The position numbers and the translations under genes are program-made. Below are positions 10,283-14,771 of a DNA stretch of 64,000 nucleotides, in pieces; position 1 is the stretch's first letter, and each line of letters opens with the position of its first letter. The notes beneath the pieces were generated by a model that searched no databases, had not been told where the DNA came from, and was given only the letters and a program-made list of their open reading frames with translations. The DNA comes from an uncultured Chlamydiae bacterium. Its GTDB lineage: Bacteria > Chlamydiota > Chlamydiia > Chlamydiales > JAJFMB01. Location of the stretch: the NCBI GenBank assembly GCA_963696295.1, contig CAVOJR010000001.1, positions 1,120,001 through 1,184,000 on the forward strand, in the 5' to 3' direction.

Positions 10283-12514
10283 TTAGTCCCAGCTGTCATT
10301 ATCATTACTGCCGCTAATCGCTGGCCGTCTATTCCTTATCGCCATGGCTAGCATTTCGTTGTTAGCCAGAGGGAGAGTAGTGGCGGGTTCCGTATGTGCG
10401 CTTTTCTGATGGGTGCTCACATGTTTGAGTTTTTTCCCCTTCTGTATACTATCCAAAAGCTCCGCTCTACCTTCATCTTTAGCGGCAGAGGGCGGCGGCG
10501 GAGGTGCGACCGTTAATGGCGGCGGAGGAGGGGGAGGTAAAGGCTGATCTTGAGTCATATTCGGGTATGGCGGCGGCGGTGGAGGAGGTAAAGGCATATC
10601 TGTCATGTCCTGGTGCCGCTGCGGCGGCGGTGGAGGTAAAGGCATATCTGTCATGTCCTGGTGCCGCTGCGGCGGCGGTGGAGGTAAAGGCATATCTGTC
10701 ATGTGCTGGTGCCGCTGCGGCGATGGAGATGAAGTCTTATCTTTACTTAGTTTCATGTTCGTGCGCGGCTGCAGCGGCGTGGCCGCTACCTGAGGCGAAT
10801 GGGGAACCGAGTGAACGGAAATATTAAGTCCCCGGCCATGGTCCAACTCCCACTTCGACAGCCAATTTTGACTGACAACCTGTTTATAAGCCGTTCCAAC
10901 GGCCGGGTTGGTGAGGGCTTCTGCCATAATGGAGAGCTTCTCTTTATAAAGCTTCATGATACGCGCCCTTTGCCCCTCCCCGAGTATTGTCGATTTCTCA
11001 GGACTTAAAAATGCGAGGAACATTTCACGATCTTCCTTCGTAATCACACCCTTCACCGTTAAAAATTCCAGAAAATCCATTCCCTCATCCCGAATGGACT
11101 TTAAGGTGTTAAGCGTCGTCTCGACATTCTTCCATTCCCCTTCCCGGTCATAGACTTGCTCTTTGCTGCGGAGCTCTCTTTGTCCATTCTCTGTTTCCAA
11201 TAACTGGTGATGAGAATCATTTAAAGGGGTATTGGGGTAAATTTTTTGGAAAATTCTTAAAGCTCGAATTTTTCTGTTGGTAAAGTCGCTGCCCTCTTCG
11301 TAATACTTATTGAGAAGACCTTGCAAAAAGCGCAGATCACTGGAAGAGAAGTCTTTTTTGGCATTGATCTCTTTGATCCGCTTTAAATCGGAAGGGAGAA
11401 AAATTTTCGCTGCGGCATGATTGCTTCCTTCATGAAAAACCAGGCTAAGAGGAGATATTAACTCATTGTTTATATCCTGTAAGCGAGCGATATCCTCTTC
11501 ATCTAAGTGAGTTTTATTGGCCAAAAAACGGTTGAGCAGGTCAATATCTTTTGCGCTTAGGAACCCTTTATCCAAAAATAGATCGATATAGCTTTTGTTG
11601 CCTCCTGAGGTTACTTTGAAACTTTTCAGAAAGTAATAATCCGTAATTTCGTAATTTAATTTAGGCGCCTTGAACGATTCGACGAGATTGGCAAATCTGG
11701 CCCAGTTTCCTTTGCGCTCGTAGATCCCCTGCAGCTCATTATAGCGGGGTTTGAGTACCTGCGCCTGCAGTTGCTGTAAGCGATAGATAGCTCTATCATC
11801 CAGGGAGAATTCCTTGTCTCTAAACCGCTCCAGGAGGGCTTTATCCGATGGAGTGATGATTCCCTCGGCGACGAGCAAATCAAAGTAACCCTTCTCCTCC
11901 CCCTTGCTGCCTACATTGACCGAGCGCCCCGTGAGATGATCTTCCACTGCATATTTCACTTTCCGCTTTTCGGCAAACTCGATAATGTTCTGCAATTCCC
12001 CCCAAGGCCCTGTGCGGTCATAAATGCCTTTTAATATGTGCACTTTGTTAAGGTCGCTAATCAGCTTCATTTTTTCAGCGCCGAATTTTGTATCCTTCGG
12101 CCAGAGACCTTCCAGGATTTTTCTTGCGGCCAATCTCTTTTCAAAGAGCTTATCCTCCCCGAAAAACTTCTTTTCAATCTGTCTGATGCCCCGCATATCC
12201 ATATAAGTCAATTCGGTCTTCGCCTGGGCTTTTTGAAGCGTATCCATTTCGCTTGTCAGAATGTGCCTGCCATTCTCCTCCAAAGTGTATTTGCCGTTTT
12301 CGGTAAACCGGTTAAGCAGCTGATGCAACTCTTCTTGCCTTTGCTGCTGTATCTGCTCGATCACTTGATTTATGGCATTGATCGGATGAAAAATGAGATC
12401 TGTCATCCCGGAGGCCTTGAATGAGCTCCTGGAGGCACTCTTTGCCTGGGGCGATACGCCGGTGGCTGTTGTTATTGTTTGAATCGATTCTTGAGATAGT
12501 GAATGAACTGACAT
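10283..12514 (-). CDS. Putative actin nucleation-promoting effector: polyproline + WH2 + C + acidic-Trp tail (WCA/VCA)
   Basis: GRAELLDSIQKGKKLKHV (WH2), NEMLAMAIRNRRPAI (C helix), SNDNDSWD (A); Ser/Thr-rich N-terminus; GGAG RBS before ATG 12514. Confidence 0.8.
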   Translation of the reverse strand: MSVHSLSQESIQTITTATGVSPQAKSASRSSFKASGMTDLIFHPINAINQVIEQIQQQRQEELHQLLNRFTENGKYTLEENGRHILTSEMDTLQKAQAKTELTYMDMRGIRQIEKKFFGEDKLFEKRLAARKILEGLWPKDTKFGAEKMKLISDLNKVHILKGIYDRTGPWGELQNIIEFAEKRKVKYAVEDHLTGRSVNVGSKGEEKGYFDLLVAEGIITPSDKALLERFRDKEFSLDDRAIYRLQQLQAQVLKPRYNELQGIYERKGNWARFANLVESFKAPKLNYEITDYYFLKSFKVTSGGNKSYIDLFLDKGFLSAKDIDLLNRFLANKTHLDEEDIARLQDINNELISPLSLVFHEGSNHAAAKIFLPSDLKRIKEINAKKDFSSSDLRFLQGLLNKYYEEGSDFTNRKIRALRIFQKIYPNTPLNDSHHQLLETENGQRELRSKEQVYDREGEWKNVETTLNTLKSIRDEGMDFLEFLTVKGVITKEDREMFLAFLSPEKSTILGEGQRARIMKLYKEKLSIMAEALTNPAVGTAYKQVVSQNWLSKWELDHGRGLNISVHSVPHSPQVAATPLQPRTNMKLSKDKTSSPSPQRHQHMTDMPLPPPPPQRHQDMTDMPLPPPPPQRHQDMTDMPLPPPPPPPYPNMTQDQPLPPPPPPPLTVAPPPPPSAAKDEGRAELLDSIQKGKKLKHVSTHQKSAHTEPATTLPLANNEMLAMAIRNRRPAISGSNDNDSWD
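10569..10721 (-). repeat. Coding tandem repeat, 3 x ~48 bp (QRHQ[D/H]MTDMPLPPPPP)
   Basis: ggaggtaaaggcatatctgtcatgt recurs 3 times. Confidence 0.9.
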
Positions 12515-12596
12515 AGAATACTCCAAATTGGTTTTTATACTTTTAATTATAGTCAATCATTGTTAATTTCAATTAAATATATAATTAATTTGAAAT

Positions 12597-12647: not shown

Positions 12648-14771
12648 TTAGAAGAAGTTTGACATGCCGCCGTCGTCATCCTCTTTCAAATTGTTCCGGC
12701 GAGTTGCAAGCTTTTCCATCAAGTGGCCCATCAAATTTCCATCTTGCTTTACTACAGGTTTTTCAACTTCATCGCCCTCGACATGATGCAGTTTTTTCCC
12801 CTTCTGAATGCTAGCCAGCAGCTCAGCTTGTCCTGTGTCTGCCGCAGGGGCAACATGATGCACTGGGGGCTGTGGAGGAGGTATATTAGATGCTGGCGGA
12901 GGAGGCGGAGGCGGAGGGGCATCGGATAGGGCTTGAGGCGGAGGTGGCGGTGGTGTCTCAACTTTGGTTCGTGTCTCTACCGGCGATGCTGGCGGTGTAT
13001 GCTCGCCTGATTGCTTACGAAAGGCTTTTTGCAGCGTTATCAAATCATGCGACTTCAGCCCCATTTTCTCTACTTTAGCGACAGTTTCTTCATCTTCTGA
13101 CTTATCCTGTGCAACCAAAGAGATCGGCCTGATCACCTTCTCTGTCAATTTGACCAACTCCTTCCTTTGGCTTTCATCCAAATTCTTGGAGGCCTCTTTA
13201 TCTAAAAACTGATTAAAGAGGAGGGCCTGTTTCTCCTTCAAAATCCCTTTTTTAGACAAAAAGGTGTAAAAACCCCCTTTCAAATCTTTGAGGACTGCTA
13301 ATTCCTTTTCCAGATCTCCCCAAGTACCCTCGCGGTTATAGACTTTCTCCTTTTCTATGAGCTCCTTTTGCCCTTTTTCGGTTTCTAACACGCTATGCTC
13401 CTTTTCATCCGGGCTGCGGCCAAACAGGGCCGTAAAGCGGTTCAAAACCTCCGTTTTTCTGGACAGAAAGTCTGCCTGGTATTTCCCGGCTATGGTTTTC
13501 ATACTTCCTAATTTAGAGGAGGTGATCTCGCATGGCTTGTTCGCGAGTTCATCGCAAAGCGCATTTTCCTTAGGCGTCAGAGCTTTAGCAATCGTCTGAT
13601 GGGTCGCCGGATGGGAAGCATGGGAAAGAGGGGTCAAAACAGTCTCCCTCATTTTCTTCAACCGTCCGATCTCATCTTTCGTCAAGGGTTTTTTCTCCTT
13701 AAACTTCGCCAGCAGCTCGACATCAACGAGTCCCTTATCAGCCAAAAGGTTCAAAATACTTTTGCTCTGGCCGTCTGCCGGCAGGAATTTATTGCCAAAA
13801 ATATGCTTCTCGACAGTGTAATTGAGGCTGTTTTGTTGATAATGATCGTAGAGAGTTTCTAAATTCTGCCAGGCGCCCTCTCTTCGAAAAACCGGGCCAT
13901 TCGCGTCTATCTCTGCAAATCCTTCCTCCGATTTTAACAAATAGTTATAGGTCGCATCTTTTGGCCACATTAGATCCAATTGCTCCAAAGCTTTGCTGCG
14001 GGTTGGCAGCAGCTCTTCATCCTCATAAACTTCCATCAAAGCTTTCAAATCCTTGACATCTTTGGAGGAGTAATTTTCTTTTTTCAGCAGCCCTTCAATC
14101 AAAGCGGCTTCTTCCCGTTCCATCATTCTTTCCCGCTGATAGGGCGTGTATTGAGAGAACTGAGTGATATTTTTATTAACAAACTCGTTCCTGTCTTTTT
14201 GAAACTTATCGCATATGACCTGATAGTAATGCTTGGCGGTCGATGCGATAGAGGTGAAAATCCAGGGGTTTGGGGGGGTTGGGACTTCTTTAAAGACGCT
14301 AGCCGCGAACACTTTCGTGTTTTGAAACGATTGCTTCACTATTGCGATCCTCGAGGCGATAAACCCGGGCTTTGGCTCTTTTGGAGCTTCATCCCTCTTG
14401 AATTTGGCCATAATAGTAGCGATAATTCCGGGCTTTGGCTCTTCTTTTACCAAAGGTTGTTCCATTGTGGGCACAACCGGGGAAGATCGGGTAGCGGAAA
14501 TTCGGTCTTTTACCAAAGGTTCCTTTCTAGGCACAACCGGGGAAGATTTAGGTTTTTCCTCCTTCTTCGCATTAGACACTAACGCGGCGACCATGCCGGG
14601 CTTCGGCATTTCATTTTCCATTGTAGCCGCATTCATCTTCGCCTTTGCCGTTGGTGCGGCATCCTTTATTTTAGAGGGATCGGGCAACCCCACCTTGGGC
14701 TGAAATTGCTCTTTTCTCTTAGTGACATTGCCTGTTGGATCGAATTTGCCTCTTAATAATGTAACATTCAT
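12648..14771 (-). CDS. Paralogous putative WCA-type effector
   Basis: Polyproline, GQAELLASIQKGKKLHHV (WH2), GNLMGHLMEKLATRRNNL (C), EDDDGGMSNFF (acidic-aromatic end). Confidence 0.78.
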   Translation of the reverse strand: MNVTLLRGKFDPTGNVTKRKEQFQPKVGLPDPSKIKDAAPTAKAKMNAATMENEMPKPGMVAALVSNAKKEEKPKSSPVVPRKEPLVKDRISATRSSPVVPTMEQPLVKEEPKPGIIATIMAKFKRDEAPKEPKPGFIASRIAIVKQSFQNTKVFAASVFKEVPTPPNPWIFTSIASTAKHYYQVICDKFQKDRNEFVNKNITQFSQYTPYQRERMMEREEAALIEGLLKKENYSSKDVKDLKALMEVYEDEELLPTRSKALEQLDLMWPKDATYNYLLKSEEGFAEIDANGPVFRREGAWQNLETLYDHYQQNSLNYTVEKHIFGNKFLPADGQSKSILNLLADKGLVDVELLAKFKEKKPLTKDEIGRLKKMRETVLTPLSHASHPATHQTIAKALTPKENALCDELANKPCEITSSKLGSMKTIAGKYQADFLSRKTEVLNRFTALFGRSPDEKEHSVLETEKGQKELIEKEKVYNREGTWGDLEKELAVLKDLKGGFYTFLSKKGILKEKQALLFNQFLDKEASKNLDESQRKELVKLTEKVIRPISLVAQDKSEDEETVAKVEKMGLKSHDLITLQKAFRKQSGEHTPPASPVETRTKVETPPPPPPQALSDAPPPPPPPPASNIPPPQPPVHHVAPAADTGQAELLASIQKGKKLHHVEGDEVEKPVVKQDGNLMGHLMEKLATRRNNLKEDDDGGMSNFF

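Follow-up and report, generated by a model that had tools for sequence, protein, structure and literature searches.

Candidate WASP-like effectors with polyproline-WH2-C-A tails encoded by a paralogous gene pair of an environmental chlamydia

Two paralogous genes and their C-terminal tails

Two neighbouring open reading frames, referred to hereafter as ORF A and ORF B, were analysed in a 64,000-nucleotide stretch of DNA (the window) from an uncultured Chlamydiae bacterium (GenBank assembly GCA_963696295.1, contig CAVOJR010000001.1, positions 1,120,001 to 1,184,000). The predicted proteins end in proline runs, a WH2 or WH2-like motif, a short C-like helix with RR near its end and an acidic, aromatic tip. 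This is the order of the WCA (or VCA) module with which WASP and WAVE proteins activate the Arp2/3 complex, and ORF A and ORF B are considered here as candidate mimics of such activators. The first-pass annotation of this DNA, which was made from the letters alone, had placed the pair at 10283..14771 and quoted its motifs; both frames lie where it put them, on the minus strand, and all of the quoted strings were found letter for letter.

10283..12556, minus strand: ORF A, 757 amino acids from a TTG, intact; candidate WCA-type effector
12648..14771, minus strand: ORF B, 707 amino acids, intact; paralogue of ORF A

The true start of ORF A is probably the ATG at 12514 (residue 15), which would give a protein of 743 amino acids. 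This start is favoured because the nearest homologue, P0004, begins at that position in the alignment. ORF A and ORF B share 32% identity over 260 amino acids (BLASTP, E 1e-37), with off-diagonal matches that correspond to internal repeats, and are by this alignment paralogues. The GC content of ORF A (47.0%) and ORF B (46.8%) is like that of the window (47.7%).

The tail features of the two proteins are as follows.

10490..10722, minus strand: proline-rich region of ORF A, five runs of 5-7 Pro
10397..10477, minus strand: WH2 motif of ORF A, residues 694-720 (Pfam PF02205)
10316..10360, minus strand: C-like helix of ORF A, residues 733-747, with the end RRPAI; aligned to the N-WASP C region of 6uhc_H and included in the tail profile A2 (see below), not significant alone
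10286..10315, minus strand: acidic tip of ORF A, residues 748-757, with Trp756; read from the sequence
12864..12953, minus strand: proline-rich region of ORF B, runs of 6 and 8 Pro
12777..12833, minus strand: WH2-like motif of ORF B, residues 647-665, with a core almost identical to that of ORF A
12687..12737, minus strand: C-like helix of ORF B, residues 679-695, with the end LATRRNNL; aligned to the N-WASP C region of 2vcp_D (E 0.19) and included in A2
12651..12686, minus strand: acidic tip of ORF B, KEDDDGGMSNFF, with two terminal Phe

The WH2 motif of ORF A was recognised by the Pfam model at 31.1 bits (E 1.7e-7), above the gathering cut-off of 23.1 bits, and at 36.3 bits when all six frames of the 3.43-Mb genome were scanned; ORF A and ORF B gave the only WH2 matches of that scan with E<0.01. 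The proline runs end 5-25 residues ahead of the motif in both proteins; in ORF A, a 48-bp tandem repeat (10519-10722, 4.2 copies) accounts for part of this proline-rich stretch. When the last 85 amino acids of ORF A were compared with the Protein Data Bank (PDB) in a single-sequence search, the best solved chains were Spire (E 2e-4) and N-WASP (E 5e-4). The alignment to the N-WASP chain of 6uhc_H, an entry from cryo-electron microscopy of Arp2/3, runs from WH2 through the helix, which ends in MLAMAIRNRRPAI, to the start of the acidic region. The C-terminus of ORF A is NDNDSWD, with Trp at position -2.

The tail recurs on unrelated proteins of the order

The first-pass annotation had described the tandem pair only. 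The pair is real, but its tail recurs on many unrelated proteins of the order. Pfam WH2 matches at E<=0.01 were present in 15 of 401 genomes, 8 of them above the cut-off, compared to none of the 14 control genomes. An 838-amino-acid ORF of one genome (L034, on G188:C4) carries two complete WH2-C-acidic-Trp modules in tandem after polyproline and ends in MSEDWL; its body is distantly related to that of a 796-amino-acid protein (L041, from G298), which has WH2 and an RR-ended helix and is without Trp. The WH2 ORF of G208 has two WH2 motifs and the end SDDDADWT, and those of G151 and G175 end in SDDEWDE and NEWGED respectively. G045 has a protein of 219 amino acids with the end KKWDD, and G136 has two WH2 motifs and two acidic Trp stretches. 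The module is internal in G138, G146 and G028, and the WH2 matches of G188a, G054, G310 and G282 are without C and A parts; the last of these looks false.

Among the ORFs of at least 150 amino acids in this genome, 42 of 2735 have an acidic stretch with Trp in their last 12 residues. Against this background, the same kind of end was present in 6 of the 14 Pfam-WH2 ORFs outside this genome, a count that leaves out a 27-amino-acid frame of G217 (binomial 3.5e-8; 1e-6 if G151 and G208, which share a genus, count as one).

The tail profile A2, which represents 13 chlamydial tails in 71 positions, matched N-WASP in the PDB at E 3.7e-18, 1.4e-12 and 4.5e-11. WAVE1 was matched at 3e-6 over profile positions 2-70 of 71, which take in WH2, the C helix and the terminal Trp, and all 19 of the PDB sequences with E<=1 were WH2-bearing actin regulators. 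In HMMER, these whole-tail matches paired the C helix with the C regions of N-WASP and WAVE1. Over 400 genomes of the order, A2 gave matches in 15, which belong to 13 of 216 genera. The five that are not in the seed (G252, G039, G067, G150 and G274) all have polyproline, WH2 and the helix, and each protein ends in an acidic run, with Trp among its final 3 residues, although A2 itself rewards a terminal Trp and these matches are supportive rather than fully independent.

BLASTP (E<=1e-5) linked the carriers in four groups only: ORF A, ORF B, P0004 and P0005; G188b and G298; G151 and G208; G067 and G252. The carriers are otherwise unlinked, so the module lies on at least nine unrelated bodies. 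That such tails are found on bodies without detectable relationship to one another suggests that selection acts on the tail module itself.

Two other layouts were seen among the WH2 proteins of the order. L040 (G138:C6, 607 amino acids) has a two-lobed hydrophobic N-terminus like that of inclusion membrane proteins, followed by polyproline, WH2, an RR helix, an acidic Trp stretch and a long array of Pro/Ala/Ser-rich repeats; its end is basic. Such a protein could place actin nucleation on the inclusion membrane. In L038 (G054:C52, 888 amino acids), four WH2-like repeats follow one another in tandem and a C/A tail is missing. This layout is similar to that of Spire, Cobl and VopL and suggests that chlamydiae have a second kind of actin nucleator, one that does not depend on Arp2/3.

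A rare repeat body

Ahead of the tails, both proteins consist largely of a repeat body.

10802..12394, minus strand: ORF A body, residues 55-585; predicted helical and small-sheet repeat domain
11747-11977, 11444-11677 and 10931-11161, minus strand: Y repeats of ORF A (about 80 amino acids), from a repeat hidden Markov model (HMM)
13047..14264, minus strand: ORF B body, residues 170-575
13623-13847 and 13119-13313, minus strand: Y repeats of ORF B, from the repeat HMM
14331..14606, minus strand: basic Lys/Pro-rich N-terminal region of ORF B, residues 56-147, with three short 'PKPG' plus hydrophobic/basic amphipathic motifs; read from the sequence

With an iterated HMM, the repeat of about 80 amino acids was found 3 times in ORF A, twice in ORF B and 38 times in the 12 known proteins of the family. 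Of 1.84 billion representatives, the body profile matched 11 proteins (E<=0.001), and of 400 genomes of the order only two, this genome and G174, whose copy is cut off by the contig end. Pfam and NCBIfam held no named family for the body, and a search of a protein atlas gave no usable match. Judged by its sequence, the body is a rare new family of repeats.

An AlphaFold model from a 12-row alignment (mean predicted local distance difference test score, pLDDT, 80.5) predicts a helical structure in which the first two repeat copies begin with small sheets; the single-sequence model (pLDDT 40.7) was useless. A Foldseek search of the PDB with the body model returned nothing at E<=0.001. VIA-align likewise identified no fold: its best Z score of 6.2 was to generic helical bundles and covered residues 1-80 only, and the 531-residue model, which was searched whole, is above the size advised for this program.

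A word-index search, restricted to the best 8000 candidates by shared words (presumably proline-rich ones), returned ORF A itself and P0004 for ORF A, and only the query for ORF B and for a 68-amino-acid tail. The genomes of 40 relatives held no match to ORF A, and a scan of genome contigs with ORF A found no relative. Among sequencing runs, no RNA data set was listed, and one DNA run from a soil metagenome contained a small share of the words. P0004, which is 52% identical to ORF A, has kept polyproline, a WH2 motif of 23.6 bits and a helix ending in QRQGL, and its last residues are KEDTEFE. P0005 (about 29% identical) has polyproline, a degenerate WH2-like stretch and a helix ending in NRRNVM, and closes with GSDTDWDA. 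P0008 and P0013 are fragments.

The repeat body is a candidate host-targeting domain. Most members of the family (P0005, P0007 and P0010-P0012) have, close to their N-termini, an amphipathic helix with a Trp/hydrophobic pattern that is similar to the motifs in the N-terminal region of ORF B, and these amphipathic motifs may be an element that binds a membrane or a partner.

Chlamydial setting, export and the accessory locus

The window lies within a 3.30-Mb contig of a 3.43-Mb genome that is in two contigs and 97% complete. Four ATP/ADP (TLC) translocases and the chlamydial histone-like protein Hc1 (77 bits) are encoded in this genome, as are type III secretion genes, among them an intact sctU, and two secretin genes with no stops within the matches. 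The chlamydial origin that had been proposed from the letters of the window is borne out by these genes, and we take the source to be a large-genome environmental chlamydia.

Neither protein has a hydrophobic segment. The highest 19-residue hydropathy is 0.82 for ORF A and 1.05 for ORF B, and no signal peptide or membrane segment was seen in either protein by this measure, in agreement with the first-pass statement that a Sec signal is lacking. The Ser/Thr-rich N-terminus ascribed to ORF A was also found: counted from Met15, 12 of the first 30 residues are Ser or Thr, and the region is polar. Type III export would be the most likely route for both proteins, with which the lack of a Sec signal or membrane segment and the polar, Ser/Thr-rich start of ORF A are consistent.

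The pair is flanked by genes for an ABC-2 permease and a CBS-domain protein. In G001, a genome of the same family and a different genus, the orthologues of these two genes (L074 and L076; G001:C329:380-1774) lie tail to tail and 13 bp apart; the permease is 74% identical and the CBS-domain protein 60% identical to its counterpart in the window. A homologue of the pair was not found in G001 or in a second genome, G002. Because the flanking genes adjoin in G001, the 4.5-kb pair is either a lineage-specific accessory insertion or was cleanly lost in G001. From this comparison, the pair is accessory, gained in the one lineage or cleanly lost in the other.

Weighing the WASP-like reading of the pair

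We read ORF A and ORF B as exported (most likely by type III secretion) mimics of eukaryotic class I nucleation-promoting factors that are accessory and host-directed, and on balance this appears probable. ORF A would be the stronger candidate for an Arp2/3 activator because it has a Pfam-level WH2, an RR-ended helix and Trp at -2. ORF B may be a weaker, modulatory or differently tuned partner. The description of both proteins as WASP/WAVE-like in the first-pass annotation thus stands for ORF A, which has the Pfam WH2 and the N-WASP alignment through the C helix and whose tail is kept in P0004 and P0005. It does not stand in the same way for ORF B, in which the WH2 match is below the cut-off and Trp is missing.

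Several observations weigh against this reading. The WH2 motif of ORF B scored only 15.0 bits (E 0.02), or 19.4 bits in the genome scan. ORF B, which ends in NFF, and P0004 have no Trp at their ends, and the acidic tip of ORF A is short, with three Asp only. As described by Kollmar et al. (PMC3298513), most acidic domains end in or near Trp, and Phe replaces Trp in some WASP homologues and in invertebrate WHAMM; whether any aromatic residue suffices in the acidic domain is treated there as still open. A profile of the C and A parts only (15 rows) found no WASP-family chain in the PDB, its one match being Pup at E 5.2, and the statistical support for C and A is therefore that of position, pattern and recurrence and not of sequence similarity. 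Head domains of WASP, WAVE or WASH (WH1/EVH1 with GBD, SCAR homology, WAHD) were absent from both proteins, with no such Pfam family at E<=10, so that ORF A and ORF B would be mimics that carry the module and not members of these families.

The relatives and the secretion genes add to these points. Pfam WH2 was not detected in P0005. The distant body relatives P0006, P0007, P0010, P0011 and P0012, in records of uncertain completeness, have repeats and no WH2, C or A, and P0009 has Pro-rich repeats only. Homologues with the body and without the motifs, which the first-pass annotation had named as a finding that would refute it, thus exist among the distant relatives but not among the close ones, P0004 and P0005. 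Since the tail is kept in close relatives and missing from distant ones, body and tail are separable modules. In sctV (G000:C1:256120-258152; L009-L011), which lies outside the window directly after the intact sctU, the Pfam FHIPEP match is in three pieces and three frames, reflecting either two assembly indels or a broken gene.

Some of these points would also suit an assembly factor that works independently of Arp2/3, in which a self-associating body that carries WH2 and the proline runs directly nucleates or elongates actin filaments, in the manner of TarP, Burkholderia pseudomallei BimA or Ena/VASP, and the likeness to C and A has no Arp2/3 function. Formal statistical support extends only to WH2 and polyproline, the C+A-only profile not being significant; ORF B and P0004 are without Trp; and the body is predicted to be long, helical and repetitive. 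TarP, the known chlamydial effector with a WH2-like element, is described as working in this way (PMC2904776). However, each protein has one WH2 and self-association of the body is only hypothetical. The RR-ended helix and the acidic/aromatic end, moreover, stand at a fixed distance from WH2 on many unrelated chlamydial proteins and would be needless in a plain WH2 nucleator. We consider direct assembly of this kind possible, if somewhat unlikely.

The two proteins might instead be scaffolds that bind actin monomer, profilin or SH3 proteins and sequester or relocate these host proteins without assembly, with ORF B possibly acting as a competitive, dominant-negative tail. This is doubtful. Although the weak acidic regions and, in ORF B, the sub-threshold WH2 and missing Trp fit such a role, and chlamydiae are reported to dampen as well as trigger Arp2/3 (TmeB; PMC10360934), the order and spacing of the motifs are as in activators, and a strongly acidic Trp end is kept in close relatives and in independent chlamydial proteins.

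It is highly improbable that the pair is not host-directed at all, whether by a chance low-complexity resemblance in proteins with an internal bacterial role or by eukaryotic contamination. Expression and secretion of ORF A and ORF B are presumed, and the word-based search was swamped by proline words. Nevertheless, the WH2 match is above a curated cut-off, the 14 control genomes had none at E<=0.01, and the module is present in 13 genera. Both genes have bacterial neighbours within a 3.3-Mb contig and a GC content like that of the window, and eukaryotic contamination was rejected on this gene context and composition.

Proposed mechanism and comparison with known systems

If ORF A and ORF B are exported mimics of nucleation-promoting factors, the proline runs would bring in profilin-actin or SH3/EVH1 proteins, either in the host cytosol or at the inclusion or the site of entry, and a single actin monomer would be held by the WH2 helix. 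Docking of the C helix and of the acidic/aromatic tip on Arp2/3 would trigger branched actin assembly. The body of ~80-amino-acid repeats would set location or regulation, and the proteins would act as constitutively open mimics.

The C-terminal order of ORF A and ORF B, from a Pro-rich region through WH2 and a C-like helix to an acidic, aromatic end, is that of WASP/N-WASP and SCAR/WAVE, following the definition of VCA given in PMC3298513. Unlike WASP and WAVE proteins, ORF A and ORF B have no WH1/EVH1, GBD/CRIB or SCAR-homology head, and they combine one WH2 and a short acidic tip with a new repeat body in a bacterial context; ORF B also has Phe in place of Trp.

VCA mimicry by bacteria is described as established for RickA, ActA and Wbm0076 (PMC9980815). 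RickA of Rickettsia has no Sec signal and activates Arp2/3 via Pro-rich, WH2 and CA parts, with N-terminal repeats of ~95 amino acids (PMC11077975). ORF A is similar in overall layout, including an N-terminal repeat region. In contrast, RickA is from a different phylum and is surface-exposed, not injected, and Pfam and NCBIfam gave no family shared with the pair, a comparison made at the level of families and not with the RickA sequence itself. Wbm0076, a WAS(p)-family effector candidate of Wolbachia, has polyproline with V, C and A parts, and point mutants in each are reported to lower its toxicity in yeast (PMC9980815). It shares with ORF A and ORF B polyproline with V-, C- and A-like parts and an origin in an obligate intracellular bacterium, but needs a transmembrane helix, whereas ORF A and ORF B have none and have a large repeat body. 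Listeria ActA, Burkholderia thailandensis BimA and baculovirus P78/83 are further WCA-type Arp2/3 activators of pathogens, with scaffolds, secretion routes and hosts unrelated to those of ORF A and ORF B.

Within the same phylum, TarP, TmeA and SemD are type III effectors that drive actin at entry. TarP, to our knowledge, nucleates by itself and has no terminal CA. It is described as having a Pro-rich region and a WH2-like actin-binding helix (PMC2904776, PMC5792643). TmeA and SemD work further upstream, through the activation of host N-WASP (PMC7526919, PMC11344771), a step that ORF A and ORF B, unlike these two effectors, would bypass by carrying VCA themselves.

A broader proposal, which is bolder and which we regard as unlikely, is that environmental chlamydiae carry a hitherto unrecognised toolkit of direct Arp2/3 activators, in which WCA arose or was captured more than once and came to lie on nine or more unrelated bodies, those of L034 with its two modules and of L040 with its hydrophobic N-terminus among them. 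Since full activation of Arp2/3 takes two CA segments together, the tandem paralogues ORF A and ORF B might act jointly and deliver two tails to one complex. They could in this way nucleate actin at the inclusion or at entry in protists without host WASP or SCAR.

Novelty and significance

The first-pass annotation knew of no such pair in environmental chlamydiae, and the literature agrees with it: searches that combined chlamydiae with WH2, VCA or Arp2 gave work on TarP, TmeA, TmeB and SemD, together with unrelated papers. No description of a WCA-type protein in environmental chlamydiae was found in the literature searched, although supplements such as the domain tables of pangenome studies could list WH2 hits. 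The principle of bacterial WASP mimics is known. What appears to be new is their presence in this phylum, the spread over many scaffolds and the repeat body.

Pathogenic Chlamydia reach Arp2/3 indirectly via host N-WASP (TmeA, SemD) or nucleate actin themselves (TarP). If the reading of ORF A and ORF B as nucleation-promoting mimics is true, environmental chlamydiae take a third route, in which the activation module of the host is carried on many different proteins, and WASP mimics, so far known from a few bacteria (Rickettsia, Listeria, Burkholderia, Wolbachia), would extend to one more phylum. The tails would also provide natural, constitutively open VCA variants, some of them Phe-ended, with which the roles of the aromatic residue and of the length of the acidic region could be probed, and would indicate that the cell biology of chlamydiae in protists, which is poorly known, has steps that depend on actin.

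Other features of the locus and genome

Two putative signals lie beside the coding regions.

12601..12621, minus strand: strong terminator-like hairpin between ORF B and ORF A, 8-bp stem with 6 G-C pairs and a T run; from a consensus scan only
14806..14834, minus strand: promoter-like site upstream of ORF B, 9/12 consensus positions; weak, the number of such sites being not above that in shuffled sequence

The smaller of the two contigs of the genome (G000 contig C2, 135,310 bp) is plasmid-sized and has a GC content of 42.9%, compared to 47.1% for the chromosome.

One gene beyond ORF B, the plus strand of the window encodes a 234-amino-acid SET-domain protein (15442-16146; Pfam SET, 78 bits). 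SET-domain histone methyltransferases are known secreted effectors of chlamydiae. Further along, at 17124-18971 on the minus strand, is a 615-amino-acid protein like adenylosuccinate lyase, in which the Lyase_1 match begins only at residue 223, leaving a long unexplained N-terminal extension.

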